A stretch of DNA of 64,000 nucleotides from Betaproteobacteria bacterium (lineage in GTDB: Bacteria; Pseudomonadota; Gammaproteobacteria; Burkholderiales; SG8-39). Below the pieces are notes generated by a model, which was not told where the DNA came from, did not search any database, and worked only from the letters and a program-made list of their open reading frames with translations. The position numbers were made by a program, and so were the translations under genes. Shown here piece after piece: positions 20,318 to 52,056 of the stretch; position 1 is the stretch's first letter, and every line of letters starts with the position of its first letter. Location of the stretch: positions 1,578 through 65,577 of the forward strand of contig JBBINV010000005.1 of NCBI GenBank assembly GCA_037443705.1, given 5' to 3'.

Positions 20318-20349
20318 TGGATCCCTCCCGCCATTGAACAGCGATACCT

Positions 20350-20826: not shown

Positions 20827-20839
20827 GCGCGTTCCTTGA

Positions 20840-20868
20840 TTGACATCAACTATATTGCAGACTAGAAT
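20840..20868 (+). promoter_or_regulatory. sigma70-like promoter for boxR-boxCBA
   Basis: TTGACA (20840-20845), a 17-nt spacer, then TAGAAT (20863-20868), about 45 nt upstream of the boxR start. This is the only AT-rich patch in the area. Confidence 0.5.
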
Positions 20869-20877
20869 GCCGGTCAA
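20849..20877 (-). promoter_or_regulatory. sigma70-like promoter for flavodoxin-bclA, interdigitated with the boxR promoter
   Basis: On the minus strand: TTGACC (20877-20872), a 17-nt spacer, then TATAGT (20854-20849). Confidence 0.45.
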
Positions 20878-20882
20878 GCATT
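20866..20882. promoter_or_regulatory. palindrome AATGC-N7-GCATT, candidate BoxR operator
   Basis: AATGCCGGTCAAGCATT overlaps the -10 of the plus promoter and the -35 of the minus promoter. A TGCA core also lies at 20856-20859. Confidence 0.3.
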
Positions 20883-20912
20883 ATATTTCATTACCCGGCG
20901 TCAACATCTTCC

Positions 20913-23317: not shown

Positions 23318-23319
23318 TC

Positions 23320-24744: not shown

Positions 24745-24748
24745 TTCG

Positions 24749-25933
24749 ATGATCGCCGCAGAGCTCATCCGCCAGCATCTGATCGACCCGGAGATCTGCA
24801 TCCGGTGCAACACCTGCGAGGAGACGTGCCCGATCGACGCGATCACGCACGACTCGCGCAACTACGTGGTGAAGCCCGAGATCTGCAACAACTGCGGCGA
24901 CTGCGTCGCGCCCTGCCCCACCGGCGCGATCGACTCGTGGCGGCGCGTGGCGAAGCCGTACCCGATCGACGAGCAGCTCCTGTGGGATGCCTTGCCAGCG
25001 GAAGAAGTGCAAGAAGGACAGGCGGGCGAGGTGCCCGAGGAAATCGCTCGCCTCACGGACATTTCCATTCAAGGCCAGGGCGGACAGGTGCCGCCCCCGT
25101 GGTCGGCGGCGCATCCGTACGTCGGGCTCTACAGCCTGACGAAGCCGGCGACCGCGATCTGCAGCGGCAATTACCGCCTGACCGCGGAGAACGCCGGGAG
25201 CGACGTCCGGCACATCGTGCTCGACTTCGGCAGCACGGCATTCCCGGTGCTCGAGGGCCAGTCGCTCGCGGTGATCGTCCCGGGCGCGGCGCCGCACGTG
25301 CGCATGTACTCGGTGGCGAGCCCCAGGAACGGCGAGCGCCCCGGCTACAACAACCTCTCGCTGACGGTCAAGCGCGTGACGCGCGACCGCGAAGGAAAGC
25401 CCGTGCGCGGCGTGGCCTCGAACTACCTGTGCGACCTGAAGAAGGGCGACAAGGTGAGCGTGGCGGGTCCGTTCGGTGCGAGCTTCCTGATGCCGAACCA
25501 CCCCGGCTCGAACCTCGTCATGATCTGCACCGGCACGGGCTCGGCGCCGATGCGCGCCATGACCGAGCGGCGCCGGCGCCGCCTGGCGCTCAGGGAGGGC
25601 GGCGAGCTGATGCTGTTCTTCGGCGCGCGAACGCCCGGAGAGCTGCCCTACTTCGGCCCGCTCATGAAGCTGCCGAAGGAGCTGATCGATGTCCAGCTCG
25701 CCTTCTCGCGCGTACCCGGAAAGCCGAAGGAGTACGTCCAGGACCGCATGCGCGCCTGCCGCGACAAGCTCGCGCGCCTGCTCGCCGACGACAACACCTT
25801 CGTCTATCTCTGCGGTCACAAGCAGATGGAGGAAGGCGTGGAGCGGGCTTTTTCCGAGATCTGCAGTTCCGACTGGGCAGGGCTCAAGGAAGCCCTTCGT
25901 ATGCAAGGCCGGTATCACGTGGAGACCTACTGA
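24749..25933 (+). CDS. boxA: benzoyl-CoA oxygenase reductase component A (2x[4Fe-4S] ferredoxin plus FNR-like domain)
   Basis: [12 protein letters not shown] and [12 protein letters not shown] clusters, [11 protein letters not shown] motif and [19 protein letters not shown] motif. Confidence 0.9.
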
Positions 25934-25934
25934 C

Positions 25935-27344
<1,410 letters not shown>

Positions 27345-27696: not shown

Positions 27697-30183
27697 CTAC
27701 GTCTCCTTCCCTCGCGCCGGCTTGCGTGCGGTGCGCGAGGGCCGGATGCGCTCCGGCTCCGCCGGCTTTCCGAAAAGATACCCCTGCGCCAGCTCGCAGC
27801 CTTCGGCCGCGAGCATACGCGCCTGCGCGCGCGTTTCCACGCCCTCGGCCACGACCTCCGCGCCCATGCCGCGGCCGAGGGCGATCACCGCACGGCAGAT
27901 CGCGAGGCTGTCGCGGTCCCCCGGAAGGCCGCGCACGAAGCTGCGGTCGATCTTGAGCGTGTCGATCGGAAAGCTCTTGAGGTAGCCGAGCGACGAGTAG
28001 CCGGTGCCGAAGTCGTCCACCGAGAGCTTCACGCCCAGGTCTTTCAGCTCGTGCAGCAGGCGCGTGCCTTCCTCGAGGTTGTGCATGACCGCGCTCTCGG
28101 TGATCTCGAGCCGCAGGAGCGAGGGGTCGACCCCCGCACCCCCGGTCGCCGCCTGCACCGCCTCGCGAAGGCCGGGGTCGCGGAACTGGCGCGTCGAGAG
28201 ATTGATCGAGACGACGAACGGGGCGCGCCGGCCGCGGTTCCACTCGGCCGCCTGGTGCGCGGCCTGTGCGAGCACCCAGCGCCCGATCGGCACGATCAGC
28301 CCGGACTCCTCCGCCACGGGAATGAACTGCGCGGGACCGGTCACGCTGCCGTCGGCGCGCGGCCAGCGCAGCAGCGCTTCCGCCCCGACCGCCTCGCCCG
28401 AGCCGAGACGCACGATCGGCTGGTAGTGCAGCGTCAGCTCCCGCTCCTCGAGCGCGCGGCGCAGGTCCCGCTCCAGCGCGAGGAACCGCACCACGCGCTC
28501 GTTCATCTCGGGGGCGAAGAAGCGGAAGCACGCGCGGCCCGATTCCTTCGCGCGGTAGAGCGCCGTGTCGGCGTTGCGGAGCAGCGTCGCGGCGTCGGCA
28601 CCGTCCTTCGGGTGAACCGCGATACCCGCGCTCGCCGTGAGCACGAACTCGTGCGCCTCGATCCGCAGCGGCGCGCCGATCGCGTTCATGAGCTTCGAGG
28701 CGACCACCGAGGCATCGTCGTCGCGCTGCAGGTCGGCGAGCAGCGCGACGAACTCGCCGCCGCTCAGCCGCGCCACCGTGTCGCCCGCCCGCAGCGTGTC
28801 GGCGATCCGCCGCGCGACCGCCGCGATCACCTTGTCGCCCATCTCGTGGCCGAGGCTGTCGTTGATCCGCTTGAGATGGTCGACGTCGATGAACATGACG
28901 CCGAGCGCGCGCCCGGAGCGGGACGCCTGCAGCACCGCCTGCGCCGCGCGGTCGTTGAGCAGGTTCCGGTTCGGAAGCCCGGTGAGCGAGTCGTAGCTCG
29001 CCTGCCGCTCGATCTGCTCCTGGTAGCGGATGCGGTCGGTGACGTCGGTGGTGACGCCCACCATGTGCGTCACGCGCCCTGCGTCGTCGCGCACCGGCGC
29101 CACGCGCAGCTCGTTCCAGAAGACCGTGCCGTCCTTGCGGTAGTTGCGCAGCAGCACCGTCGCCTCGCGCTCCTCGCGCACCGCGGCGCGCAGCTCGTGC
29201 ACGCCGGGCTGGTCGCGGTCCTCGCCGTGGAGGAACCGCGGATCCCGGCCCATCACCTCGGCCGCCGCGTAGCCGGTCACGCGCTCGAACGCCGGGTTGA
29301 CGTACACGATGGCGTGGCCGGCGCGCGTCTGCTCGGTGATCATGACCGAGTTCACGCTCGACTCGAGCGCGCGGTTCCGCAAATGCAGCGCGGCCTCGGC
29401 GCGCTTCCTGTCCGTGATGTCCTGCGCCCCGCCTCGGTAGCCGATGAACCTTCCCTGCCGGTCGTGCAACGGTCCGCCGCTCACGCTCATGTAGCGGACC
29501 GAGCCGTCGGCCATGCGCCGGCGGAATTGCGCGTCGCGGAACGGCTCGTGCCGCTCGAGCTGCGCGCGGTGCGCCGACCAGTCGCCGGCCGCGGGCTCGA
29601 GGTCGGGAATCTCCCAGCGCGCCTTGCCGAGGTACACGCCCGGGTCTCCGCCGCGCGACATCGCCGCCGCCCCGGGGCCCGAGAGCACGGTGAACCGGAA
29701 CTGCGCGTCCTGCTCCCAGTACCAGTCGCTCGTGAGCTCGGTGAGGCTGCGGAAGCGCGCTTCGCTGTCGCGCAGCGCGCGGAAGGTGTTCGCCTGCATC
29801 GCCGCAAGGCGCACCAGGCGCTCCAGCCCCGCGCGGTCCAGCCGGTCCTTGCTCACCAGGTCGTAGGCGCCGCGCGCGAGCGCCTCCTCGGGCAGCCGCG
29901 GATCGGGCATGCCGGTGAGCACGATGATCAGCCGGTCGGTCGCGCCCGCGAGGCGCTCGAGCGTCGCCAGACCCGCGGAGTCGGGCAGCCCGAGGTCCGT
30001 GATGACGAGATCCACGCTGCTGCCGGCGAGCAGCGCGAGCGCCTCGCCGAGCGTCTTCGCCCACTCGACCGAAAGATCGGCCCAGGCGACCGCGCCGAGT
30101 TGCCGGCGCACGATTTCCGCGAAGTCGGCATCGTCCTCCACGAGGAGGATCCGCACCGAGGGGCGCGCGGGCACCGGGTCCAT
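27697..30183 (-). CDS. response regulator with REC-PAS-PAS-GGDEF-EAL architecture (c-di-GMP turnover)
   Basis: REC (ILLVEDD...DLVITDLGLPD), two PAS domains, GGDEF (RLSGGEFVAL) and EAL (EALLRW...EITES...DDFGTGYSSL). Confidence 0.9.
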   Translation of the reverse strand: MDPVPARPSVRILLVEDDADFAEIVRRQLGAVAWADLSVEWAKTLGEALALLAGSSVDLVITDLGLPDSAGLATLERLAGATDRLIIVLTGMPDPRLPEEALARGAYDLVSKDRLDRAGLERLVRLAAMQANTFRALRDSEARFRSLTELTSDWYWEQDAQFRFTVLSGPGAAAMSRGGDPGVYLGKARWEIPDLEPAAGDWSAHRAQLERHEPFRDAQFRRRMADGSVRYMSVSGGPLHDRQGRFIGYRGGAQDITDRKRAEAALHLRNRALESSVNSVMITEQTRAGHAIVYVNPAFERVTGYAAAEVMGRDPRFLHGEDRDQPGVHELRAAVREEREATVLLRNYRKDGTVFWNELRVAPVRDDAGRVTHMVGVTTDVTDRIRYQEQIERQASYDSLTGLPNRNLLNDRAAQAVLQASRSGRALGVMFIDVDHLKRINDSLGHEMGDKVIAAVARRIADTLRAGDTVARLSGGEFVALLADLQRDDDASVVASKLMNAIGAPLRIEAHEFVLTASAGIAVHPKDGADAATLLRNADTALYRAKESGRACFRFFAPEMNERVVRFLALERDLRRALEERELTLHYQPIVRLGSGEAVGAEALLRWPRADGSVTGPAQFIPVAEESGLIVPIGRWVLAQAAHQAAEWNRGRRAPFVVSINLSTRQFRDPGLREAVQAATGGAGVDPSLLRLEITESAVMHNLEEGTRLLHELKDLGVKLSVDDFGTGYSSLGYLKSFPIDTLKIDRSFVRGLPGDRDSLAICRAVIALGRGMGAEVVAEGVETRAQARMLAAEGCELAQGYLFGKPAEPERIRPSRTARKPARGKET

Positions 30184-30216: not shown

Positions 30217-31986
30217 CTAGCGCTCGAGCACGTACGTCCCGGGCGCGTCGGCGAGTCTGGGGAATTCCTTGGTCTCGAGGGGCGGCGGTGCCCCGAGCGG
30301 GCCGCAGTGCTCGGCGAGCCAGCCGGTCCAGTCTTCCCACCAGCTGCCCTGGCGCTCCTCGGCCTGCGCGCGCCAGTTGTCGGCGCTCTGGCCGCGGTGC
30401 GCGGCGCCGATCCAGTAGCGGCGCTTCGCCGGCTTCACCGGCGGGTTCACGATGCCGAGGATGTGGCCCGAGCTGGAAAGCACGAAGCGCTTGGGCGAGG
30501 TGACGTAGCCGTTGATCTTGAAGGTCTGGCGCCAGGGCGCGATGTGGTCGTCCTCGGCCGAGACGTCGTACAGCGGCTGATGGATGCGCGCGATGTCGAT
30601 CGGCTCGCCGGCCACGGTGAGCGCGTCGCGCTTCACCAGGTTGTTCTTGAGGTACATCTCGCGCAGGTAGTACTCGTGCATGCGCCAGGGCATGCGCGTC
30701 GTGTCCATGTTCCAGTAGAGCACGTCGAACGGCGCCGGGCGCTCGCCGTAGAGCCAGCCATGCACCACGTAGTGCCAGATGAGGCTGTTCGACCGGAGTA
30801 GCCGGAACGAGGCCGCCATCTCGCGCCCGTCGAGGTAGCCGCGCGCGCGCATCATGTCGGCGAGCCAGCGCACGGTGCCCTCGTCGAGGAACACTTCGAT
30901 GTCCCCCGGCGACTGGAAATCGGTGAGCGCCGCGAGCAGCGTCCAGCTCGAGACCGGAACGTCCTCGCGCGCGTGCCTGCGGTTGAGCCACGCGAGATAG
31001 GTGGCGAGGAGCGTGCCGCCGATGCAGTAGCCGGCCGCGTGCACCCTGTCCGACCCGCTCACGCCCTGCGCCACACGCACGGCTTCGGCGACGCCGTGCG
31101 TGAGATAGTCGTCGAAGCCGGTTTCGGCGAGTTCCGGGCCGGGGTTCTTCCAGCTCGTCACGTACACGTCGAAGCCCCTGTCGAGGAGGTGCCGCACCAT
31201 GCTCTTCCTCGGCGTGAGATCGAGCACGTAGTACTTGTTGATCCACGGCGTGACGAGCACGACCGGAACCTTCCGCACCTGGGCCGCGGCCGGCGCGTAA
31301 TGGATCACTTCGAGCAGGCGGTTGCGGTACACGACTGCGCCCGGCGTGGTCGCGAGGTTTCCGCCGACCTGGAAGTCCTCGGGCGAAGTCATGCGCACGG
31401 TGCCCGCGCGGAGGTCCTCCATGAAGATCTCGCAGCCGCGCCGCAGGCTCTCCCCGCGCGTCTCGACGGCCTTGCGCATCGCGACCGGATTGGTGAGGAG
31501 GAAGTTCGTGGGCGCCACCGCGTTCAGCCATTTCCGCCACCAGAACGCGGCCCGGCGCCGCTCGCGCGGCGAGATCCCGGGCGTGGCGAAGAGCGCGTCC
31601 TGCACCTGGCGCGTGATGAACAGATACCACTGCTTGAGCAGGTCCCAGCCCGGCTCGCGGGTCCAGACGGGATCCGCGAAGCGCGCATCGTCGGCCTGGG
31701 GAACCACGATGTCGGGACCGGGGCGGCCCGCGAGGCGCGCCGCGGTGTGCGCCTGCAGCGCGAGCAGGCTCCCGGCGAAGCGCGTCCACTGCTCGAAGAG
31801 CTCCTGCGGGTGCAGCATCCAGGCGAGGTGCGCGTGCGCGAGCGGCGCGATCATGCCGATCGGATCGGCGAACGACTCCACGCTGCCGCGCAGCGCGCGC
31901 AGCCGCTCGGCCGAAACCGCGAAGAGATGGGTCAGCTGCTCCTCGGCCTGGGGGACGGCTTCGGTCGGAAGGCCGGTGCGGTTCAT
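30217..31986 (-). CDS. phaC: class I poly(3-hydroxyalkanoate) synthase
   Basis: NKYYVLDL, lipase-box GYCIGGT and the WNMDTTRMP region; 589 aa. Confidence 0.9.
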   Translation of the reverse strand: MNRTGLPTEAVPQAEEQLTHLFAVSAERLRALRGSVESFADPIGMIAPLAHAHLAWMLHPQELFEQWTRFAGSLLALQAHTAARLAGRPGPDIVVPQADDARFADPVWTREPGWDLLKQWYLFITRQVQDALFATPGISPRERRRAAFWWRKWLNAVAPTNFLLTNPVAMRKAVETRGESLRRGCEIFMEDLRAGTVRMTSPEDFQVGGNLATTPGAVVYRNRLLEVIHYAPAAAQVRKVPVVLVTPWINKYYVLDLTPRKSMVRHLLDRGFDVYVTSWKNPGPELAETGFDDYLTHGVAEAVRVAQGVSGSDRVHAAGYCIGGTLLATYLAWLNRRHAREDVPVSSWTLLAALTDFQSPGDIEVFLDEGTVRWLADMMRARGYLDGREMAASFRLLRSNSLIWHYVVHGWLYGERPAPFDVLYWNMDTTRMPWRMHEYYLREMYLKNNLVKRDALTVAGEPIDIARIHQPLYDVSAEDDHIAPWRQTFKINGYVTSPKRFVLSSSGHILGIVNPPVKPAKRRYWIGAAHRGQSADNWRAQAEERQGSWWEDWTGWLAEHCGPLGAPPPLETKEFPRLADAPGTYVLER

Positions 31987-38936: not shown

Positions 38937-39971
38937 TCAGTGCGCGAGTATCACCTCGGGCACGGCATGCAGCGGCACCACCCGGTCGGCGGCGCCCAGC
39001 TTCACCGCCTCCTTGGGCATGCCGTACACGACACAGGTGGCCTCGTCCTGCGCGCAGGTGTGCGCGCCGGCATCGTGCATCTCCTTCAGCCCTCGCGCGC
39101 CGTCATCGCCCATTCCCGTCAGGATGATGCCGAGCGCGTTGCGCCCGGCATATCTGGCCACCGAGCGGAACAGCACGTCGACTGAGGGCCGGTGGCGGTT
39201 GACGGGCGGGCCGTCGAGCACCTCGACGAAGTATTGCGCTCCGCTGCGGTTGAGCTGCATTTGGCGGCCGCCGGGCGCAATCAGCGCTCGCCCGGGCACC
39301 ACGCGGTCTCCGTTCCGGGCCTCGCGCACCTCGAGCTGGCAGAGCTGGTCCAGCCGTGCGGCGAACGAGGCGGTGAATTTCTCCGGCATGTGCTGCACGA
39401 TCACGATCCCCGGGCATACGCGCGGCAGCCTCGAGAGCACCTGCTCAAGGGCCTGCGTACCGCCCGTCGAGGTTCCGATCGCGACGACCCGGTCGGTTGT
39501 CTGCGCCAGCGCGGCCGCAGGTCCGGGGGCAAGGGATGGGAGACGCTTCCCGGAAGATACTCCTCCCAGGTTTGCGCCTGCGGCGCTCTTGACAGCCCGG
39601 ATCAGCTCTTCTCCGGCCTGAGGCAGCGCCGCCTTCAGCAGTGCCTTCGGCTTCGTGACGAAGGTCACCGCGCCGGCGGCCAAGGCCTGAAGCGTGGTTT
39701 CCGCCCCCTTCTCGGTGAGCGTCGAGCACACCACCACCGGGGTCGGACGCGCGGCCATGAGCTTGTGCAGGAACGTGATCCCGTCCATGCGCGGCATCTC
39801 GATGTCGAGGACGATCACGTCCGGCCACTCCACGCTCATGCGCTGCATGGCGATGATCGGATCGGCGGCGGTTCCGATCACGCGAATCTGCGGGTCCGCT
39901 GCGAGCAGCGCGCCGAGCACCTGGCGCACCACCGCGGAGTCATCGACGATCAGGATGCGGATCTGCTGCAT
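38937..39971 (-). CDS. cheB: protein-glutamate methylesterase/deamidase
   Basis: REC domain (ILIVDDS...[13 protein letters not shown]) plus methylesterase domain (IGTSTGG..., GMGDDGA). Confidence 0.95.
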
Positions 39972-39984
39972 GGGGCGGGCGCCG

Positions 39985-40470
39985 CTATCGCGCGCGGACG
40001 TGTCGCGCGAACACTTCGCCGGTGGCGAGGTCGAGAAGGATGTTGCGATACCCGGAGCCTCCTACGCTTTCGGCATGGACATCGATCCCGATCGAGCCGA
40101 GCAGTGCTCGCGCCTGGCCCACATTGCGCTCGCCGACGCCGCTCTCGATCGCGCCGGCGGCGCCGGCAAACCGGCTCGATCCGCCGAATATCTTGGCTAC
40201 GTACTCCTTCGGCCGCGTGCCCCGCCTCAGCATGTGCTGCACAAGGATCTGGAGCGCCTCGTCGGCATAGCGGGCATCCAGCGGGACGCCATCGGCGCGG
40301 CTGCGGCCCGGCAGGAGGTAATGGCACATGCCGCCGACCCGGACCCCGGGATGCCACAGCGTGATCGCGACGCATGTCCCGAGGAGCGTGCGCAGGCGCG
40401 TCGGCGCCGCGTCGAACCAGAGCTCCCCGGGCCGGAGGTAGTGCTCGACGCCGGCGGCGAGCGCGTTCAC
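39985..40470 (-). CDS. cheD: chemoreceptor glutamine deamidase
   Basis: [12 protein letters not shown]...GGMCHYLLP...KIFGG. GTGA overlap with the cheR stop. Confidence 0.9.
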
Positions 40471-41279
40471 GGCTTCCGGTAGACCGCGGGTCCGTCGGCC
40501 GGGAGGCCGCCGTACACGCCGCTCAGGCTCTCGGAATGCCCTACGAACAGAAAGCCCCCGCGCCGGATGCGCGATTCCACGCGCTCGATCACCGCACGCT
40601 TGGTCGGCACGTCGAAGTAGATCAGGACGTTTCGCAGGAACACGACGTCGAACTCTCCCAGCGGCGGAAGCGGTTCCATGAGATTCACCTGCCTGAACGA
40701 CACCCGCTCGCGGAGCGAGCGCTCGACGAGCAGGGTCCCGCTCTGGCGCCCGACACCCTTCAGGCAATAGCGCGCCAGATAGGCGCGCGGGATGCCATCC
40801 GTGCGAGCGAGCGAATAGTGACCGGCCGCGGCGCGCTCGAGCACGCGGCTGCTGAGGTCGGTCGCGACAACCTCCCACGGCGAGCCGCTGCGGCAGTCGT
40901 CCAACACCATAGCGACGCTGTAGGGCTCCTCTCCGCTCGAGCAGGCGGCGCTCCAGACGCGGAACGGGCGCGCGGCAGAGGCCTCCCGCGCGAGGCGCTC
41001 GAGCCGGGCGAAGTGCCTCGGCTCGCGAAAGAAATACGTCTCGTTGGTGGTCAGCAGGTCGATAGCGGTCGCGAGCTCGCCGTCCCTGCCGCCCGCCTCC
41101 AGCAGCCTCACATAGGAGCGGAAATCGGGAAGTTGCAGCGCGCGCACCCGCTTGCCGAGCCGCGCGCAGACCAGGGGTTTCTTCTCGGCGCCGAGCCGGA
41201 TCCCGGCGATGCGCTGGCAGGCCTCGCGGATCCACGCAAATTCACGATCGCCGATGAGCGTGCCTGCCGCGGCGTCCAT
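40467..41279 (-). CDS. cheR: chemotaxis protein methyltransferase
   Basis: TTNETYFFREPRHF, VWSAACSSGEEPYS and VFLRNVLIYF. Confidence 0.95.
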   Translation of the reverse strand: MDAAAGTLIGDREFAWIREACQRIAGIRLGAEKKPLVCARLGKRVRALQLPDFRSYVRLLEAGGRDGELATAIDLLTTNETYFFREPRHFARLERLAREASAARPFRVWSAACSSGEEPYSVAMVLDDCRSGSPWEVVATDLSSRVLERAAAGHYSLARTDGIPRAYLARYCLKGVGRQSGTLLVERSLRERVSFRQVNLMEPLPPLGEFDVVFLRNVLIYFDVPTKRAVIERVESRIRRGGFLFVGHSESLSGVYGGLPADGPAVYRKP

Positions 41280-41288
41280 GATGTCGCC

Positions 41289-43268
41289 TCAGGCCTGCCG
41301 GGGCTCGAAGGCAAGGGGTACGGCAGTCGACGCGGAGGGTTTTTTCACGGACGCCTTTCGCTCCTTCGCCGGTGCGGCGGCGGACCCGTGTGCCTCGAGC
41401 TTGAAGAAGCCCATCAGGCGCTGCAGCTGCTCGGCCTGACCGCTCATCTCCTCGGCGGTCGCCGCCAGTTCCTCCGAGGCCGAGGCGTTCTGCTGCGTGG
41501 CCTGGTTGAGCTGCGTCACCGCGGTGTTGATCTGCTTGACCCCCGAGGACTGCTCCTCCGAGGCCGCCGTGATCTCCTGCACCAGGTCCGAGGTCTTGGC
41601 GATCGAGGGCACCATCTCCTCCAGGAGCTTGCCCGCTTTTTCCGCGAGCTTGACGCTCGAGCCCGCAAGCTCGCCGATCTCCTGCGCCGCCACCTGGCTG
41701 CGCTCGGCCAGCTTTCTCACCTCCGCGGCCACCACCGCGAAGCCCTTGCCGTGCTCGCCCGCCCTCGCCGCCTCGATCGCGGCATTGAGCGCCAGCAGGT
41801 TCGTCTGGTAAGCGATGTCGTCCACGATCCCGATCCGCTCGGCGATCGACTTCATCGCCGTCACCGTCTCGCGCACCGCCTCGCCCCCCTCTTTCGCCTC
41901 CTTGGCCGCCTTTGCGGCCATGCCGTCGGTCACCTTCGCGTTCTCGGCGTTCTGCGCGATCGAGCTGGTCATCTGCTCCACCGAACTCGAGGTCTCCTCG
42001 ACGCTGGAGGCCTGCTCGGTCGCCGCCTGGCTGATCGACTGCGCGGTGGCGCTCACCTCCTCCGAGGCCGAGGCCAGCGCGTCCGCCGAGCCCCTCACCT
42101 CCGCAATGATCTGCGTCAGCTGCTCGTTCATCGTCTTCATCGCCGAAAGCAGCTGACCCGTCTCGTCGCGTCCCGCCGCCTCGATCTGCACGCTCAAATC
42201 GCCCTTTGCCAGCCGGCCGGCCGCTTCGACCGCCTGCCCCAGCGGGCGCGTCACCGAGCGGGTGATCGCCCAGCCGAGGAACGCCGCGAGCAGCGCTACC
42301 GCAATCACCCCGCCGATGACCCAGCGCTGCGCGGCCTGGAAGCGCGCGACGCGTCCCTGCAGCATCGTGTCGAGCGCCTCCATCGCCATCCCGTTCAGCC
42401 GGAACTGCGCATCGATCACCTGCGTGAACGTGGCGAAATAGCGGTCGGGCGCGAAGTCGAGCGTTTCCCGCTCGACGATTTCCTCGGTCGCGAGCTTCAT
42501 CGCACGGCCGGCCTGCGCGATGCTCTCCTTCGCGATCCCTCCGAGCCTGTCGCCCAGCCATGCGTCCGAGGCGAGCGATTTCCCGAGCGCGAGGTCCATC
42601 TGGGCGAAGTGGTAGCGCGTCCGGCCCACCAGCGCAGCCATCCCCGCGCGCTCCTCCGACGTGACCGCCTTCGCCGCCAGGAACCCGGTCCCGCGGGCAC
42701 GCATCTGCCCGAGGGTTTCCGTGAGCCACGGCATGTGAAAGACCGTCGCCATGATCAGGTGGTATCCGGTGAATTCCGGATCGAGGGACAGCCCATAGTG
42801 ATCGGCGATCCGGTCAAGCACCAGGAGCTGGTCGTTCACCAGCTCGGTATGGCGAGCCGTGCTTTCCGCGCTCGAGATAGATCCCCCGGCGACGCGCGCG
42901 GCGAGGTCCTTCCATTTTGCCGCCGCCGCGTCCCACGCACCGAGGAGCGCGGTGTCGGCGATATCGCGGCGGAACAGCGCGCCGGCGTCCTGCAGCGCGG
43001 TTTCCACCTCCGCCTGCTTCGCAGGGCGCTGCGCCTTGAGTGCGCCGTTCCCGCCGAGCGCACCGGCCGCCATGCCGCGGTGCTGCTGTGTGAGTTGCAC
43101 CACCCTGAGCAGCTTCTGCGACGGCAGCACGCCGCGCGCCTCGAGCTGCGCTGCGGCGATGCTTTCGTTGGTGCTGCGCACGTAGAGCGCGAGCGGTATG
43201 CCGGCCAGCAATGCGCCGAGCACCCCCAGGATCGCGAATTTCTGCCAGAGCAGGAGATTGCGGACCAT
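41289..43268 (-). CDS. methyl-accepting chemotaxis protein with a large periplasmic NIT-like sensor domain
   Basis: TM1, then a roughly 300-aa periplasmic helical domain containing [13 protein letters not shown] (NIT-like QxxRG motif), then TM2, HAMP and the MCP signalling hairpin ([25 protein letters not shown]). Confidence 0.9.
41363..42170. repeat. 808-bp perfect direct repeat, copy 1 (3' part of the MCP gene)
   Basis: Checked block by block against 43947-44754 at an offset of 2584 bp; no mismatches seen. The flanks diverge immediately. Confidence 0.95.
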
Positions 43269-43304
43269 CGTACCTCCTTCGGAATGTGAAATCCAGTGCC
43301 GCCC

Positions 43305-43850
43305 TCAGGCGGCCGCCGCGGCGGTCTCGCCTCCGGCGCCGGCTCCTGCCGCGGCCACGATGCCCGCAAGCTCCTCCATCGACAGCACGCGCGAGAGGTC
43401 GAGCACGATCACGAACCGGTCGTCGATCTTGCCCATCGCCTCGACGAAATCTGTCCGGATCGAGGCGCCGAAGTCCGGCGCCGGCTCGATGCTCTCGGGC
43501 GGGATCTCGAGAACCTCGTTCACCGCGTCGACCACGATCCCCATCTGCTGCACCTCCTCCCCGGGAACCTCGGCGATCACGATGCAGGTGCGCTTCGAAA
43601 CCGGCTGTGCGGTGCGGCCGAACCGGACCATCAGGTCGATCACCGGCACGACCGCGCCGCGCAGGTTGATCACGCCGCGGATGTAAGGCGGAGTCATCGG
43701 CATCCGGGTCACCTGGCCGTACTCGATGATCTCGCGGATTGCGAGGATCCCGATCGCGAAGGTCTCACCTCCGAGCTGGAAGGTGAGGTACTGCCCGGCG
43801 TGCGCCGCCTGCTGCGATTCACGCTCCTGAGTGCTGACGGGTGCGTTCAT
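43305..43850 (-). CDS. cheW: chemotaxis coupling protein
   Basis: YLTFQLGGETFAIGILAIREI...IRGVINLRGAVVPVIDL. Confidence 0.95.
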   Translation of the reverse strand: MNAPVSTQERESQQAAHAGQYLTFQLGGETFAIGILAIREIIEYGQVTRMPMTPPYIRGVINLRGAVVPVIDLMVRFGRTAQPVSKRTCIVIAEVPGEEVQQMGIVVDAVNEVLEIPPESIEPAPDFGASIRTDFVEAMGKIDDRFVIVLDLSRVLSMEELAGIVAAAGAGAGGETAAAAA

Positions 43851-43860
43851 GGGGCCGGCC

Positions 43861-45474
43861 TCAGAATCGCTGGAATTCGGGCTCGAGCGCGAGCGGCGCG
43901 GCCGGCTCTTTCGCCGAGGGTTCGGGTTTGGACAGCTTCGCCTTGGCCTTCGCCGGTGCGGCGGCGGACCCGTGTGCCTCGAGCTTGAAGAAGCCCATCA
44001 GGCGCTGCAGCTGCTCGGCCTGACCGCTCATCTCCTCGGCGGTCGCCGCCAGTTCCTCCGAGGCCGAGGCGTTCTGCTGCGTGGCCTGGTTGAGCTGCGT
44101 CACCGCGGTGTTGATCTGCTTGACCCCCGAGGACTGCTCCTCCGAGGCCGCCGTGATCTCCTGCACCAGGTCCGAGGTCTTGGCGATCGAGGGCACCATC
44201 TCCTCCAGGAGCTTGCCCGCTTTTTCCGCGAGCTTGACGCTCGAGCCCGCAAGCTCGCCGATCTCCTGCGCCGCCACCTGGCTGCGCTCGGCCAGCTTTC
44301 TCACCTCCGCGGCCACCACCGCGAAGCCCTTGCCGTGCTCGCCCGCCCTCGCCGCCTCGATCGCGGCATTGAGCGCCAGCAGGTTCGTCTGGTAAGCGAT
44401 GTCGTCCACGATCCCGATCCGCTCGGCGATCGACTTCATCGCCGTCACCGTCTCGCGCACCGCCTCGCCCCCCTCTTTCGCCTCCTTGGCCGCCTTTGCG
44501 GCCATGCCGTCGGTCACCTTCGCGTTCTCGGCGTTCTGCGCGATCGAGCTGGTCATCTGCTCCACCGAACTCGAGGTCTCCTCGACGCTGGAGGCCTGCT
44601 CGGTCGCCGCCTGGCTGATCGACTGCGCGGTGGCGCTCACCTCCTCCGAGGCCGAGGCCAGCGCGTCCGCCGAGCCCCTCACCTCCGCAATGATCTGCGT
44701 CAGCTGCTCGTTCATCGTCTTCATCGCCGAAAGCAGCTGACCCGTCTCGTCGCGCCGGTCCACCTCGACCGTTGCCGTCAGGTCACCCTTGGCGAGCGTC
44801 TCGGCGACGTGCATCGCCCGGGAGACCGGACGGGTGATCGACAGCGTCACCCACACCGCGAATCCGACCGAGAGGATCAGCGCGGCCACGCCGAGCGCGG
44901 CCATCATGTTGCGCGCCGCCTCGTACTCGGCGCGCGCCTCCGCCGCGCTCTTCTCGACGATCTTCTTCTGCAGGTCGAGGAACGCGTTGACGTTCTCCAT
45001 GAACGTGTCGAGCGCAGGAAGCGTACGTTCCCTCATCACGCGCGCCGCCTCCCCGCGGTCGCCTTCCGCGAGCAGCCGGGCAACCTCGCCGAAGGACTGG
45101 ACGTACGGCGTCCGCGACTCCTTGATCTTGGCGATCGCCGCCTTGCCCTCGGGCAGGCGCACGAGCTTCTCGGCCTTGTCGATCGCGTGCGTGATCGCGT
45201 TCTTGTTTTGTTCGATGCGCTCCTTGATGCGCGCGACGTGCGCCGGATCGGTGGTGACGAAGAACTCCAGGTTACGGCGCGCGTTGTTGCGCGCGCCGCT
45301 GCTCACCTGCATCGCGAGCTCGGCCTTTACCCAGTCCTGCTCGGTGATGCGGGTCGTGATGCGGTCCATGTTCCGCATCGAAAGCAAGGCAACGGCGAGC
45401 AGCCCGCAGAACAGCAGCACCACCGTGCCGAAGCCGATGCCGAGCCGCACGCCAATCTTGAGGTTCTTGAACAT
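43861..45474 (-). CDS. methyl-accepting chemotaxis protein with a 4-helix-bundle (4HB_MCP-like) sensor
   Basis: [16 protein letters not shown]... TM1, a roughly 160-aa helical periplasmic domain, TM2, HAMP and the signalling domain. The C-terminus ends EFQRF. The start shares one nucleotide with the cheA stop (TAATG). Confidence 0.9.
43947..44754. repeat. 808-bp perfect direct repeat, copy 2
   Basis: Identical to 41363-42170. Confidence 0.95.
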
Positions 45475-47558
45475 TACTGCTCTCCTTTCGCAAACCGTTG
45501 ATTTCCCGAAACCAGTTTCACCAGCGCAGCCACGTCGAGAATCAGGGCGACCTCCCCGGTGCCGAGCACCGTGGAGCCCGCAATGCCGCGCAGCTGCCGG
45601 AAGAGGCTGCAGAGGGGCTTGATTACCGTCTGCTGCTCGCCCACGAGCGAGTCGACCACGAGCCCCGCCTTGCGTGCACCGCAGCGCACCACGACGACGC
45701 TTTCGCGCTTCGGTGGCGCGCCCTCGATCTCGAAGAGCTCCCGCAGCCGGATGTAAGGAAGCACTTCGCCGCGCAGGTCGAAGTGGCGGTGCGCGCCCCC
45801 GCGCGCCGCCGGGGGAAGCTCCACGCACTCGATCATCTGGTCGAGCGGCACCACGAACGTCGCGCCGCCGACCGCTACCATGAAGCCGTCGATGATCGCG
45901 AGCGTGAGCGGCAGTCGTATCGACATCGTCGCGCCCGCGCCTCGGCGCGAGGCGACCGCAACCGAACCGCGCAGCGCCTCGATGCTCTTTCTGACCGCGT
46001 CCATTCCGACGCCGCGGCCGGAAACGTTGGTCACGGTTTCGGCGGTCGAAAAGCCCGGCGCGAAGATCAGGTCGAGGATTTCCGCCTCCGTGAGGGTGGC
46101 TCCTGCCGCGACCAGACCCGCCGCATGCGCCTTGGCGAGGATTCGTTCAGGATCGATTCCGCGTCCGTCGTCGCTCACCTCGATCACGATCGCGCCGGAA
46201 TCGTGGCGCGCCGCCAGCCGCAGCGTGCCCCGCGCCGGCTTGCCGGCGGCCCGGCGTGCCCCCGGGCTCTCGATGCCATGATCGACCGCGTTGCGCACGA
46301 GATGCATCAGGGGATCGGCGATGCGCTCGACCACCGACTTGTCGAGCTCGGTTTCGCCGCCTTCGATCACGAGATCGATCTCCTTGCCGAGCTCGCGCCC
46401 GAGCTCGCGGGCAACGCGCCGAAAGCGCGCGAACGTCTCGCCGATCTGCACCATGCGGAGCTGCAGCGCGCCGTTGCGGATTTCCTCGACCAACGCCGAC
46501 ACCCCCGCTGCCGCCTCCTGAAGCTCGCCACGGCCCTCGCGCGCGAGCGCGTTCACGCCGGCGCCCGCGATCACGAGCTCGCCGACGAGGTCGATCAGCC
46601 GGTCGAGCCGGTCGGCAGCCACACGGATGAAGCGTCCGTCGTCGCTCCTGCGCTCTCTCGCGCGCGTCTGCTTGTCGAGCGCGGCGTCCACTACCGGCGC
46701 CTTGACCAGTCCTTCGCCGACGAGCGCCTCGCCGAGCAGCGCGCGTCCCTGGGTCGCGAGCGCCGCCTCCAGTTCGCCTTTGGTGAGCGCCCCGCAAGCG
46801 ACCAGGATCTCGCCGAGGCGCGTGCGCTCCTCGGGGAGCTGCTCGATCAGCGCGATGTAATCGGCGGTGCGGCTGTCGGGAGGCAGGATGCGGACGCTGC
46901 AATCGTCGCGCACGAACTTGAACGCGCTCTCGATCTGGCCGCGCTCGGCCGGGCTTTTCAGCCGCAGCTCGAAGCCGAGATAGCAGGCTTCCGGATCCAT
47001 TTCCGCGAAGCCCGGCATGGCGTCGGTGAGGACGACGAGATGGCGGACTTCGCCCAGCGTCTCCAGGTAGCCGATCACGGAGGCCGGTTCGAAGCCGTTG
47101 CGCAGTGCGTCGCGCTGGAAGCGCAGCGAGATGTGCCATTCGTCGCCCGCGCGTGTGCCACCGCGGAGCAGCGCCTCGAGCCGTGCGCGCAGCACGGATT
47201 CGCGTTCCGTCGAAACGCCGCCGTTCTCGTGCAGCAGGCCCTCGATATGGTCGCGGCACTCGACCAGCAGCGCGCTGGCCGCGGCGTCGAACGAAAGCCG
47301 TCCGCCGCGCATCGCGTCGAGCACGCTCTCCACGACATGGGTGAAGGAGACGACGCGCTCGTGCCCGAACAGGCCCGCCGAACCCTTGATCGTGTGCGCG
47401 GCGCGAAACAGCGCGTTGAGCGCGTCGGCGTTCGCGGGGTCCGCCTCGAGCCGCTGCAGGCAGCTCTCCATCTGCTGCAGCATGTCGCGACTCTCCTCGA
47501 GGAATACCTCGGCCGCGGCCTCGATCGAGAACTTCGTGGCTTCTCCGTGCTCGCCCAT
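45474..47558 (-). CDS. cheA: chemotaxis histidine kinase
   Basis: Hpt domain ([16 protein letters not shown]), dimerisation domain, HATPase (DDGRGID, GRGVGMD) and a CheW-like C-terminal domain. Confidence 0.95.
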
Positions 47559-47561
47559 GGC

Positions 47562-47858
47562 TTACTCCTTCGGGGCCGTCCAGCGGTCCTCGCAGCGGTA
47601 GGCGCGGAGCAGCGCCGCGACGGGTGCGCTCTTCGCGCCGATGACCGCACCTGCGCCGAGCGAAGCGAGCTCGCGCCGGACCAGTTCGAGGAGCTGGAAC
47701 CCCGAGCTGTCGAACTCGGTCGCCTGCGACAGATCGAACCGAACCGGAGCGCCGCCTTCTACGACGCTGGCGAGCGCTTCCTTCATTCTCGCCGCGTGGT
47801 AGATGTCGGCCGAGCCGCTCACGCGCACAGTGTCTCCATCCCGGGTGATCTCGATCAT
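47562..47858 (-). CDS. STAS-domain (anti-sigma-factor-antagonist-like) protein
   Basis: 98 aa: MIEITRDGDTVRVSGSADIYHAARMKEAL...FDLSQATEFDSSGFQLL. Sits between cheY and cheA. Confidence 0.8.
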   Translation of the reverse strand: MIEITRDGDTVRVSGSADIYHAARMKEALASVVEGGAPVRFDLSQATEFDSSGFQLLELVRRELASLGAGAVIGAKSAPVAALLRAYRCEDRWTAPKE

Positions 47859-47869
47859 GTCGTTCTCCT

Positions 47870-48238
47870 TCAGGGCAGCACCAGCCGCGACACCGCATCC
47901 AGCATCTGCGGGGGCTGGAACGGCTTCACCATCCACGCCTTCGCTCCGGCCGATCTTCCTTCGGCCATCTTCGCTTCCTGCGACTCGGTGGTGAGCATAA
48001 TGATCGGCGTGAACTTGTAGGCGGGCATTCCTTTCAGCGCGCGCACCAGGGCGATGCCGTCCATGTTCGGCATGTTTACGTCGCTGATGACCAGGTGCAC
48101 CTTGCGCCCATCGAGCTTCGCGACCGCGTCCTTGCCGTCGCAGGCTTCGAGCACGTCGTAGCCCGCGCCGCGCAGCGTGAGCGCCACCACCTGCCGCAGC
48201 GACGCCGAGTCGTCCACCACCAGAATCGTCTTCGCCAT
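47870..48238 (-). CDS. cheY: single-domain chemotaxis response regulator
   Basis: ILVVDDS...LVISDVNMPNMDG...KAWMVKPF. Confidence 0.95.
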   Translation of the reverse strand: MAKTILVVDDSASLRQVVALTLRGAGYDVLEACDGKDAVAKLDGRKVHLVISDVNMPNMDGIALVRALKGMPAYKFTPIIMLTTESQEAKMAEGRSAGAKAWMVKPFQPPQMLDAVSRLVLP

Positions 48239-48247
48239 CGCGCCTCC

Positions 48248-49306
48248 TCAGAAAAAGGTGACAGCGGAGCCGGCGCCGGCGCTCGCCGGTGCCGCGACGG
48301 AAGCGGCGTGGTTGCGATGCTGCTCCTCGGTCGTGTAGCCGACCCGCATCTCGGCCAACCACGCCTCTGCCGACACCTGCTCGCCGGGGCGCCCGAGCGC
48401 GCCGGTCACGCGCTCGGCGAGGCGCGCGATGTCGTCGCGCGCCTGCGCCAGGATCTGGCTGGTGCGATCCTGGAACTGGAGCTGCACAATGACCTGCTCG
48501 ATCGCCTCGCGAATGCCGCGGCTCTCCGCGAGGAGCGCCTGTCCGGAGCTCTTGAGCCCCTCGACTCCGTTCTTGAAGCGCTCGAGCACCGCGCGGATGG
48601 TCGCTTCCGCGCCGCCGAGCGCGCGATGGTCCTCGCCCGCCGCATGCGCAGCTGCCGCTTTCGCCGCGAGCATCGCGGCGCCGATCGTCTCGGCCTTCTC
48701 GCGCATGCGTGCGCCAGTCTGCGCCGAGCGCCCCGAGAGCGTGCGCACCGCGTCGGCAACCACCGCGAAGCCACGCCCGGACTCGCCGGCGCGGGCCGCC
48801 TCGATCGCGGCGTTGAGCGCAAGCAGGTTCGTCTGGCTGGCAATGCTCGAGACCTCTATTGCCATTTCCTTCAGCTCCCCGGCGTAGTCGCCCAGGCGCT
48901 GCACGTCCGCGGCGATCGCGTCGCGCGCGCGCATCGCCTCCTGCAGCGTCCGCGTGAGCGCGGCCAGGTCCTGCTCGCAGGCGCCGAGCAGCGCGACGAC
49001 TCCCGCGCCGTCGCCGTGCATCGCACCTGCGGTCCGCTCGGAGGCACGCGCCGTCGCTTCGATCCGGCCGATCAGTTGCGTGAGGTTCGCGACGAGCTCG
49101 CCGATGGCGCGTTCGGTCTGGCTGCGCGAGGATTCGATGTTTCGCGCCCACACGGGGAGCACGTGGGCGCAGAGCCGGTCGAGCCCCTCGATCCCGGGCC
49201 GCGGCGAGGGCGCCGGGGCCTCCTGCGCCGGAGCGTTTCGCGGCGCATCGAAGAACAGCGACACCAGAGGCGTCCAGAAACCCGATCCCGCGTCACTTGC
49301 CTTCAT
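48248..49306 (-). CDS. soluble (no TM helix) MCP-signalling-domain protein
   Basis: [36 protein letters not shown] hairpin tip with no hydrophobic segments. ATG 49306 has GAGG 5 nt upstream; the ORF-track start at 49360 is less likely. Confidence 0.8.
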
Positions 49307-49511
49307 TCTTGCCTCGTACGTTCTTCGTCCGGCGCGGCGGTATGCCGCGCTGCCGGTCATCGTCTTCGGGGCCAGGCGGAATCAGGGCCTGGTGTGCTCG
49401 CCGCGGTGTCAGAGCGGCGACGGGAGATCCGCTCCCGGTGATGGGCAGACTAGCAGCCGGGAACGAGTCGCAGTATGGGGGTTAGCGGCAGGAATCCGCC
49501 GCTGTTAAGGG

Positions 49512-52056
49512 TCAGGCGGCCAGCGCGCGAACGGCCGGGGGCCGAAGCTCGAGCTCCGCCCGCACCACGCCTCCTGCGCCGCGAACCTCCAGGCGACCGC
49601 CCGCGCCCGGCAGCAGCGTGCGCGCGAGCGCGAGACCCGCACCCTGCCCGCCTGCGGGCGCGAACGCACCCGGGTTCTCGACGACGAGGCGCACACCCTC
49701 GCGCCATGCCTGCAGGCCCACGGCGACGCCTGCGTCGGCGCGCGCGCGGTGCTTGACCGCGTTCCACACCAGCTCGTTGATGACGAGCGCGACCGGCACC
49801 GCCTCGCCTTCGGCGAGCGCCCAGCGAGCTTCGCCTTGCGGCTCGTAGCGGATGTCCGCCGCGGAGATCGTGCGCAGCGTGAACAGGATTTCGAGCAGCA
49901 GCGGCTCGAGGCGCACATCGTCCGCGCCGCGCCCGTGCAGGCCGTGTACCTTGGCGATCACCTGGATCTGGCTGATCGCCGCGCGCAGCGCCTCCTCGAG
50001 CTCGGGACTGCGGGCGATGCGCGTCTGCAGCAGCCCGGTCACGCCCTGCAGGCTGTTCTTGATGCGGTGGTGCACCTCGCGCACCAGCGCGTCTCGCTGG
50101 CGACGGGCTTCCTCCAGCCGAACTGCCTCGCCGCGCTTGGTCGCGGTGATGTCGTGGCCGACCGTGATGATCCCGCCGTCGCCCAGACGTCGCTCGTGGA
50201 TCAGGATCCAGCGGCCGTCCGCGTAGCGGATCTCGAACGGTCCCGAAAGCTTGCGCCTGCGCTCGAGACGTTCCGCGACCCATTCCGCCTCGCGGCCGAT
50301 CGCATCGGCGATGTAGCCGGCGGCCACGGCGGCCCGGAGATGGTCCTCGAAGCGCCGCCCCGGCTCGAGCGTCTCTGCGATCCCTGCGTTGCAGGCGATC
50401 ACGTGCCGATTGGCCAGCACGATGCGATCGCCGGCGTCGCAGATCACCACCGTCTCGGCCAGATCGTCGATCGCTGCCCGCAGCCGCTCGTCGGCTTCGC
50501 GCGCCCGTTGCTCATTCCGCACCTGCTCGGTGACGTCGGATCCCAGGTTGCGGTAGCCCAGGAAGTTGCCGCGCTCATCAAAAAACGGCATGCCGCTCAC
50601 GTTGATCCAGGCCTCGCCGCCGGGATCCCTTCTCAGGAAGCGGAAATTGCGAAACGGCTCGCGCCGCGCCAGCTTCTCGAGGTGCGACTTCCACGGCTCC
50701 TGAGTGAAATCGGCTCCCGGGGGCGGCAAGGTCGAGCCGGTTCTTGCCGATGTACCAGCCGGGGGACACGCCGCGCGCCGCCGCGATCGAGTCCGAAACC
50801 CAGGTATAGCGGCCCTCGGCGTCCTGCTCCGAGAGCATGTCGCCGCTCGCAAGCGTGAAGTCCCGGAACCGGGCTTCGCTCTGCGCCAGAGCGAGCTCCG
50901 CTTGCTTGCGCTGCGTGATGTTGACCCCCACGAAGAGCGTGCCCCCGTCGGGCAGGCGCTGCTCGGTGACCATCAGCCAGATCCCGTCCTGGCGCCGCAC
51001 CTCGTATGGGCCTGTGGGCGCGCGCCTCGCCGCCATCCGCCGCTCGAGCCAGCCCTCCTCGTTGCCCACCGCATCGGGGAACAGGCCGTGCGTCACCGCG
51101 GCGCGCAGGAACTCCTCGAACCGGCGACCCGGCGTGATCGATTCCGCGACCGGCGCGTTCAGCTCGGCAAACCACCGGTTGACCAGGATGAAGCGGTCGT
51201 CCGCATCGCACAGCGCCACCGCCTCCGAGAAATGCTCGATCGCGGCCCGCAGCCGCTCGTCGGCCTCGCGCGCGCGCTGCTCGCTCCGGATGCGCTCGGT
51301 AATGTCGGTGCTGCTGTTCCGGTAGCCGAGGAACCGCCCCGCCTCGTCGAAGAACGGCACGCCGTTCACCGAGATCACCGCGCCTCCGTCCGGCCCCGCC
51401 GTCACGTAGCGGAAATCCCGGAACGGCTCGTGCCTCTCGAGTGCCTCGAGGTGCGACTTCCACGGCTCGCGCGCGAGGTCGGCGCGCGGCGCGATCACTT
51501 CCACGCGCCTGCGCCCGACGTACCATTCCGGAGGCACCCCGCGGCGGCGCGCGCCGACCGATTCCGAGACCCACGTGTAGCGGCCGTCGGCGTCGATCTC
51601 CGCGAAGAAGTCCCCGTTGGCGCGCGCGAAATCGCGAAAGCGCGCTTCGCTTTGCGCAAGGGCGCGCTCGGCGCGCTTGAGCTGTGTCACGTCGCGCCCC
51701 ACGCCGCTGTAGCCGCGGAAGCGGCCCGCGCGATCGAAGATGGGCACTCCGCTCACGTTGACCCATCGGACCGTGGCGTCGTCGGCCGGGTACGGCGCCT
51801 CGAAGTCCCTGAATGGCTCGTGCCGCTCGAGGGTCTCGCGGTGCGCGCGCCAATGCGGATCGTCCGGGTCGGCGCGCGCCACTTCCCAGCGCGTCTTGCC
51901 GATCAGCGAGGCAAGCGAGCGCCCTATCCTCTCGGGCGCGCCGTCCGAGTACCAGACGAAGCGAAAATGCCCGTCCTGCTCCCAGAACCAGTCCGCGCTC
52001 AGCGCCAGCAGCTCGCGCAGGCGCCCGGCTTCGAGCGCCGGGTCTTCCTTCCTCAA
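49512..52056 (-). pseudogene. multi-PAS HisKA_2 sensor histidine kinase, reading frame broken by 1 nt in a homopolymer (or sequencing error)
   Basis: ORFs 50578-52056 and 49512-50852 overlap. Deleting one G from the G5 run at 50719-50723 joins them into ...KNRLDLAAPGADFTQEPWKSHLEKLARREPF.... This parallels ...RRRVEVIAPRADLAREPWKSHLEALERHEPF... in the preceding repeat unit. The C-terminus has HHRIKNSLQ (HisKA_2) and an HATPase domain. TTG start overlaps the upstream stop. Confidence 0.75.

Follow-up and report, generated by a model that had tools for sequence, protein, structure and literature searches.

Two chemoreceptor genes flanking cheW in a betaproteobacterial che operon share an identical 808-bp signalling module, probably through recent gene conversion

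How do two chemoreceptors with unrelated sensor domains come to carry the same signalling half, as assembled to the last base? The question is raised by a chemotaxis (che) operon in a 64,000-nucleotide stretch of contig JBBINV010000005.1 (assembly GCA_037443705.1, a Betaproteobacteria bacterium of the GTDB lineage SG8-39), the whole of which is called the window here. Two of its genes for methyl-accepting chemotaxis proteins (MCPs), MCP1 and MCP2, lie on either side of cheW and share an 808-bp direct repeat that encodes the signalling module of both receptors. The answer favoured here, with a probability of roughly 0.78, is that recent gene conversion between pre-existing paralogs within one che operon produced the two copies.

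The two copies (Table 1) agree at 808 of 808 bases in a base-by-base self-comparison, in a single uninterrupted run at an offset of 2584, and no further identical run of at least 15 bases occurs at that offset in 40900-43200. A repeat search and a self-blastn of the whole window, the latter proposed in an earlier note made from the sequence of this DNA, returned the same pair, which is the sole near-identical repeat in the 64 kb; the next-best pairs by self-blastn stand at 80% (boxB paralogs) and 72% (PAS repeats). The repeat measures 269 whole codons plus 1 nt. In the coding sense it begins with R-DETGQLL at the start of HAMP amphipathic sequence 2 (AS2), takes in the two methylation helices and their EE/QE pairs (compared with the methylation consensus by eye) and then the hairpin, and closes with ...HGSAAAPAK in a poorly conserved linker, 11 codons beyond FFKL and the end of the helical bundle. 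Both ends are abrupt. On the upstream side, in HAMP AS1, identity is only ~53-57% across the adjoining 30-150 nt, and on the downstream side the C-terminal tails have diverged; the second transmembrane segment (TM2), AS1 and the tail are separate for each receptor and lie outside the repeat. What the earlier note had described, an 808-bp identical direct repeat in two MCP genes flanking cheW, with abrupt divergence at its ends, about 269 encoded residues running through ...GSAAAPAK and NIT-like versus 4HB sensors, agrees with these measurements and with the Pfam matches (NIT, PF08376, in MCP1; 4HB_MCP_1 in MCP2). Its statement that the last ~25 residues differ completely is too strong: the tails of 24 and 28 residues have diverged, yet PLAFEP in one and PLALEP in the other are partly alike. 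Within each copy, moreover, two 45-nt segments are 76% alike (41442-41486 and 42030-42074; 44026-44070 and 44614-44658); they encode the two methylation-helix site regions, 15 residues each, a similarity that stems from the pseudo-symmetric antiparallel coiled coil of the receptor.

The operon type is common in Betaproteobacteria, and many loci have the order cheA-mcp-cheW followed by one to three more mcp genes. Fifty-nine loci with this MCP signalling-domain type were surveyed, comprising the window and related cheA-linked and NIT-MCP loci. For 41 of the 51 signalling domains of multi-MCP loci the nearest nucleotide relative lay inside the same locus, and the signalling domains of paralogs within a locus are 79-100% identical in nucleotide sequence while their sensors are 25-55% identical or unalignable. 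Paralog identity is 100% over 774 nt in a Gallionella metagenome-assembled genome (MAG; L050), 100% over 750 nt in a Thauera MAG (L063), 99.6% in the isolate Thauera sp. 2A1 (L051), 98.9% in the complete genome of Ca. Accumulibacter phosphatis (NC_013194; L026), 98.5% in a pseudomonadotal MAG (L046) and 98% in a Burkholderiaceae MAG (L012). Sliding-window profiles of related loci have the same plateau-and-cliff shape as the window, with the cliffs at differing places: the plateau starts ~180 nt later in L046 and ~220 nt earlier in L063, and in both L026 and L050 it spans the tail and cheW as well. Such varying end points are expected of conversion tracts, unlike a fixed module junction.

The comparison of orthologous loci that the earlier note had called for could be made in related lineages, and the two Thauera loci are the most instructive. 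Between them the MCP-2 sensors are 82% identical over 655 amino acids and the MCP-1 sensors 61% over 557 amino acids. Their signalling domains are 99.6% (L051) and 100% (L063) identical within each genome and 85.6-85.8% between genomes in all four comparisons. With orthologous sensors in the two genomes, both genes must predate the split, yet each genome's signalling domains group together; the Thauera pair is, on the evidence of these alignments, a case of concerted evolution by gene conversion. The arrangement of the window itself also recurs. The order 4HB-cheW-NIT is found in L064 at a paralog identity of 85%, and NIT receptors adjoining cheW are 80% (L016), 90% (L013) and 98% (L012) identical to their neighbours, values that fit an old pairing re-homogenised at different times in different lineages; the arrangement is probably older than the identity seen in the window, which can be read as the most recent end of a spectrum of re-homogenisation in related operons. 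In L026 (11966-19568) and L050 (11917-19634) the repeated unit takes in cheW, forming tandem [mcp-cheW] arrays with three to four receptors that are 92-100% identical through signalling domain, pentapeptide tail and cheW. A Burkholderiales MAG locus (L099; cheA-cheW-4HB MCP-NIT MCP) whose contig ends in the NIT receptor was suspected of breaking at such a repeat, but it holds no internal nucleotide repeat and was uninformative.

The favoured mechanism is a non-reciprocal homologous recombination in which the HAMP-AS2, methylation-helix and hairpin module of one gene overwrote that of the other. Either gene could have been the donor, and the periplasmic NIT and 4HB sensors, TM2 with HAMP AS1, and the C-terminal tails would have been left untouched. 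Recombination of some kind is required, because selection at the protein level cannot remove synonymous differences across 269 codons; that conversion was the form it took in this particular genome is what we infer. The earlier note had proposed recent or ongoing gene conversion, and recent conversion is the best-supported reading, given the 100% tract, the plateaus of related operons and the grouping of Thauera signalling domains by genome. Its companion claim of zero synonymous divergence holds for the sequence as assembled, with the caveat that a few single-nucleotide polymorphisms (SNPs) may be collapsed by de Bruijn assemblers.

Before the origin of the copies is weighed it must be clear that there are two of them, since the DNA comes from a metagenome and typical short reads do not span 808 bp. 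The only public run with this DNA is X1, a subsurface metagenome of 2020 available as Logan contigs; the locus is absent from runs X2 and X3 of the same study. The Logan contigs of X1, assembled independently of the window, include one of exactly 808 nt that consists of the repeat alone (depth 18), and four distinct single-copy contigs each share exactly 30 nt with it, as expected for k = 31: one ending at 41392 (depth 9.29), 42141-43622 (11.1), 43600-43976 (7.4) and one starting at 44725 (10.6). The earlier warning that short-read assemblies may collapse or mis-join here was apt, for the Logan contigs break exactly at all four repeat boundaries. They also break inside cheW (43600-43622, a 23-nt overlap), where depth falls from 11.1 in one contig to 7.4 in the next, probably because of a gap in coverage at ~10x, and the break is a sign of thin read support for the locus. 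That a single receptor gene, or flanks from different strains, led to the repeat being written twice by error is nevertheless very improbable. Depth in the repeat contig is roughly double that of the adjoining contigs, its four flanks are distinct, the flanks are of equal depth, as a mixture of strains would not predict, and the segment 42141-43976 (MCP1 sensor, cheW and MCP2 tail) adjoins the repeat at both ends, so any linear genome holding it has the order repeat-cheW-repeat. The two copies are real. Whether they are strictly identical is a finer matter, and it is unlikely, though not negligibly so, that a few differences were collapsed by bubble popping and one consensus edge traversed twice. 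Coverage is ~10x per copy in short-read contigs from one run only, and finished or isolate genomes of related operons stand at 98.9-99.6%, not 100%. The depth of 18 lies within the 16.7-21.7 expected from the sum of the neighbours and by our own estimate leaves room for ~0-6 hidden half-depth SNP sites. Against such collapse, no variant contig of 95-99% identity covers the repeat in X1, where the only other matches are short hairpin matches from other MCP genes, and the window assembly and the Logan assembly agree on the repeat. Even if some sites were collapsed, identity would still be ~99% or more and the biological reading unchanged; the safe statement is that the copies are identical as assembled and at least ~99% identical in reality.

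With two copies in hand, their origin lies between conversion and some other route to sequence identity. Strong purifying selection on the signalling domain, without recombination, can be given practically no weight. MCP signalling domains are indeed highly conserved, and the hairpin is 84% identical in nucleotide sequence even with MCP3, a third receptor of the operon; that match, however, is confined to an 83-nt stretch in self-blastn, and the rest of MCP3 has no nucleotide similarity to the repeat that could be detected. The boxB paralogs of the window are only 80% identical, and across 269 codons not one synonymous difference is present, which refutes the idea. The chief rival account is that a partial duplication or domain shuffle took place very recently, with illegitimate or micro-homology recombination joining the signalling module of the 4HB receptor to a NIT sensor, or the reverse. 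Several observations weigh against gene conversion, and some of them speak for this rival directly. Beside the tract there is no shoulder of intermediate identity, which fits a recent module duplication or swap as well; both boundaries are sharp, the downstream one lying in the non-conserved linker; and the G+C content at third codon positions (GC3), 0.94 in the repeat and 0.92 in the 4HB sensor, is a little lower, at 0.87, in the NIT sensor. The evidence for specific homology of the tails and HAMP AS1 is weak, amounting to 40% amino-acid identity over 57 residues and the PLAxEP motif in low-complexity sequence. Exact identity rests on short-read assemblies at ~10x per copy in which SNP bubbles between copies can be popped, a caveat that extends to the MAGs with 100% paralog identity. 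Finally, concerted evolution could be examined in related lineages only and not for the window's own pair, there being no close relative: among GTDB genomes CheA reaches at most 58% and the NIT sensor at most 38% amino-acid identity, the best NIT sensor match in a set of 5.8 billion proteins (64%) lies on a 3.7-kb contig outside any che cluster, an exact 64-nt piece of the repeat has no match in JGI metagenome contigs or GTDB genomes, and exact-protein look-ups of MCP1 and CheW gave no match. A duplication or shuffle would, for its part, need two precise junctions to leave both genes complete and in frame, each with its own HAMP AS1, TM2 and tail. It also sits poorly with the 4HB-cheW-NIT order of L064 at 85% paralog identity, with the 80-98% identity of NIT receptors beside cheW in L016, L013 and L012, which looks like an old, re-homogenised pairing, and with the Thauera comparison, which amounts to homogenisation after speciation in this operon family. 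We consider this alternative improbable, and gene conversion, supported by 808 identical bases between genes with sensors of different Pfam families and by the step to ~55% at the ends, is retained as the explanation.

Direct repeats are also a substrate for deletion, and the earlier note had raised RecA-mediated loss and population heterogeneity as a possibility. The layout of the copies dictates the product: the 4HB sensor, one repeat and the MCP1 tail would remain, and the MCP2 tail with its putative tether, cheW and the NIT sensor would be lost, which would probably disable the pathway. A deletion subpopulation is, on the other hand, not visible at ~10x in X1, where the length-weighted depths of the inner and outer contigs are equal (10.35 and 9.92).

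What the shared module may do for the cell depends in large part on what lies outside it, above all the tails. MCP2 ends in EFQRF after a 23-residue linker, which matches xZxxZ (Z = F, W or Y); MCP1 ends in EPRQA (...PLAFEPRQA), which does not, its tail otherwise resembling that of MCP2 (PLALEP). The cheA-proximal MCP of almost every related locus has a long linker rich in Ala, Pro and Lys followed by the ending D/E-F-x-R/K-F, which second receptors often do not have. The operon CheR is most similar to Salmonella CheR and aligns without gaps to 1BC5 through the beta-subdomain, whereas alignment to Pseudomonas aeruginosa CheR1 (5XLX) needs a 4-residue gap there, in a loop that may be the feature discriminating pentapeptide dependence. 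The xZxxZ pattern is the definition of the CheR/CheB-binding pentapeptide, and 4HB_MCP_1 is among the sensor families rich in pentapeptide-bearing receptors; pentapeptide-dependent and -independent CheRs are separable by features of the beta-subdomain (PMC7390727). EFQRF of MCP2 is a putative CheR/CheB tether because of the conserved xFxxF on cheA-proximal MCPs, the resemblance of CheR to that of Salmonella, and the published definition with its precedents in Escherichia coli and P. aeruginosa.

If this is so, a division of labour between the two receptors is plausible. They would have different inputs with an identical surface for CheA, CheW, CheR, CheB and CheD and identical methylation sites, and with such identical interfaces the NIT and 4HB receptors should mix in the same trimers-of-dimers and arrays. 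The 4HB receptor would recruit CheR and CheB by its xFxxF tether, and the tether-less NIT receptor would be methylated and demethylated efficiently by enzymes held on neighbouring tethered receptors, much as Escherichia coli Trg and Tap rely on Tar and Tsr; adaptational assistance between the two is thus suggested by analogy. The earlier note had held that the effect is to keep two receptors equipped with an identical signalling module. As an outcome this is real; its maintenance by selection is a further supposition. One may still ask whether homogenisation of the module is a systematic, selected property of this betaproteobacterial operon family and not a neutral accident, with the cheA-proximal xFxxF 4HB gene, whose sensor is kept at that position in 41 loci, serving as a master copy that repeatedly overwrites accessory receptors (NIT and others) inserted after cheW. 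This is a tentative and on balance doubtful proposal. Were it true, accessory receptors would stay addressed to their own CheA, CheW, CheR and CheB, insulated from other chemosensory pathways, and conversion tracts would as a rule end short of the tether, leaving a single receptor to recruit the adaptation enzymes.

The che operon lies on the minus strand in the order mcp3-cheY-STAS-cheA-mcp2-cheW-mcp1-cheR-cheD-cheB, transcribed from high to low coordinates (Table 1), and is tight, with gaps of 9-36 nt or ATGA overlaps, the start ATG of MCP2 overlapping the stop of cheA in this way. In the two receptors Pfam matches MCPsignal (PF00015) at E 5e-39 and 2e-38 and HAMP at E 1e-10 and 5e-10, and 4HB_MCP_1 in MCP2 at E 1e-22. 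The NIT domain occupies residues 56-288 of MCP1 (E 3.3e-10; 41.2 bits against a gathering cut-off of 24.9), enclosed by hydrophobic stretches, judged by eye, at ~5-30 and 315-335, and several homologs of this sensor are annotated as nitrate/nitrite-sensing-domain proteins. The match emerged when the N-terminal 336 residues were scanned alone; the full-length scan at E <= 0.001 did not report it, which illustrates how a real sensor domain can be hidden in a whole-protein scan. A 655-residue extended form of MCP2 was rejected, as the 4HB domain starts at residue 5 counted from MFKNLK, whose ATG is the one that overlaps the cheA stop. The 69% GC content accounts for the long plus-strand open reading frames (ORFs) over the region, such as 40374-43289, which are antisense artefacts. 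A scan of the operon gave no promoter-like sites, terminator-like sites there are no commoner than in shuffled sequence, and the window has no tRNA or Rfam matches. Many related loci have a weakly related MCP like MCP3 ~1 kb upstream of cheA, at 35-40% amino-acid identity to the repeat module; the MCP3-type gene is a conserved, unhomogenised member of the operon.

Table 1. Coordinates of the che operon genes and of the repeat copies within them
Feature	Position	Strand	Description
Repeat copy A	41363..42170	-	Inside MCP1, R367-K635: HAMP AS2, methylation helices with EE/QE sites, hairpin tip
Repeat copy B	43947..44754	-	Inside MCP2, R242-K510 (numbering from MFKNLK): same 269 residues as copy A
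cheB	38937..39971	-	Receiver domain and methylesterase
cheD	39985..40470	-	
cheR	40467..41279	-	Beta-subdomain aligns gap-free to Salmonella CheR (1BC5, pentapeptide complex)
MCP1	41289..43268	-	659 aa transmembrane chemoreceptor; periplasmic NIT sensor, HAMP, MCPsignal (Pfam); 24-residue tail without C-terminal pentapeptide
cheW	43305..43850	-	181 aa, Pfam CheW E 1e-39; only stand-alone coupling-protein gene of the operon, between the repeat copies
MCP2	43861..45477	-	538 aa from MFKNLK; periplasmic 4HB_MCP_1/TarH sensor, HAMP, MCPsignal; 28-residue tail
EFQRF codons	43864..43878	-	C-terminal pentapeptide of MCP2, putative CheR/CheB tether; outside the repeat
cheA	45474..47558	-	Hpt, dimerisation, HATPase_c and CheW-like P5 domains
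STAS gene	47562..47858	-	Small STAS-domain protein
cheY	47870..48238	-	cheY-type response regulator
MCP3	48248..49360	-	Chemoreceptor without recognised sensor domain, head of the operon

Elsewhere in the window, a duplicated boxB (context 18758-27344) represents ordinary paralog divergence, in contrast to the 100% MCP repeat: segments 23326-24192 and 25941-26807 are 80% identical over 879 nt at an offset of ~2615, one in a boxB-like gene upstream of boxA (24749-25933, TIGR03224) and the other in the full BoxB gene downstream (TIGR03225, 769 bits, ~25941-27344). Adjoining them are genes for a benzoate-CoA ligase (18758-20317) and a regulator of the helix-turn-helix plus shikimate-kinase type (20913-21692). 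The interval from the box genes to the che operon encodes a response-regulator-PAS-GGDEF-EAL protein (27697-30183) and a PhaC-type polyhydroxyalkanoate synthase (30217-31986). A direct repeat of 72% identity over ~530 nt (50406-50932 and 51175-51703), probably duplicated PAS modules, falls in a minus-strand, PAS-rich sensor region whose ORFs (49512-50852 and 50578-52056) carry PAS_4, PAS_7, HisKA_2 and HWE_HK domains.

The NIT and 4HB receptors very probably feed one and the same array, alike in kinase coupling and in adaptation sites, and with a shared array their inputs should be integrated rather than insulated. More broadly, in the clustered MCP genes of many betaproteobacterial che operons (Thauera, Accumulibacter, Gallionella, Burkholderiaceae) the signalling module has been repeatedly homogenised while the sensors diverge. 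Trees of MCP signalling domains will in such cases group receptors by genome and mislead on orthology, and short-read assemblies will break or collapse at these genes.

The betaproteobacterial pattern may be undescribed as such: a full-text search found no open-access paper joining 'concerted evolution' with 'methyl-accepting chemotaxis', and the Treponema papers in which gene conversion and MCPs occur together concern tprK, not chemoreceptors. The principle is not new, as identical modules are well known in Campylobacter, and wiring different sensors to the same signalling machinery in this way is a familiar bacterial route. The closest described case is that of the group A receptors Tlp2, Tlp3 and Tlp4 of Campylobacter jejuni, whose signalling domains are identical and whose sensory domains are ~30% identical; the tree of Tlp signalling domains largely mirrors the genome tree, and that of the sensor domains has a different topology (PMC9769880). 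There too, paralogous transmembrane chemoreceptors in one genome combine identical signalling domains with diverged sensors. The Tlp genes, however, are dispersed and in some cases inverted, all have dCache_1 sensors, and their conserved C-terminal halves have been proposed as homologous-recombination substrates for the large inversions that are seen (PMC6433261). In the window the repeats are direct and 2.6 kb apart in one operon around cheW, the NIT and 4HB sensors differ in fold, a rearrangement would be expected to delete cheW, and the tether is on one copy only.

Parallels with other chemosensory systems concern the tails. Like the window, the Che2 system of P. aeruginosa encodes a pentapeptide receptor and a dedicated cheR, cheD and cheB together in one operon. 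There the pentapeptide of McpB/Aer2, a single dedicated soluble receptor, is targeted by CheR2 and has been proposed to match receptor to enzyme (PMC7390727); the window has two transmembrane receptors sharing one module, with the tether on one only. In this last respect it resembles E. coli, in which Tar and Tsr carry a C-terminal aromatic pentapeptide (NWETF) on a flexible linker and their partners Trg and Tap carry none, although the window motif, EFQRF, has F rather than W at position 2 and the signalling domains of the E. coli receptors have diverged where those of the window are identical. For the genetic process itself the nearest parallels are tufA/tufB and the rRNA operons, within-genome paralogs kept identical by RecA-dependent non-reciprocal exchange, with tracts that end where homology ends. 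In those cases whole genes of the same function are homogenised, whereas in the window it is one module of a two-module protein, so that the input diverges and the output stays identical.

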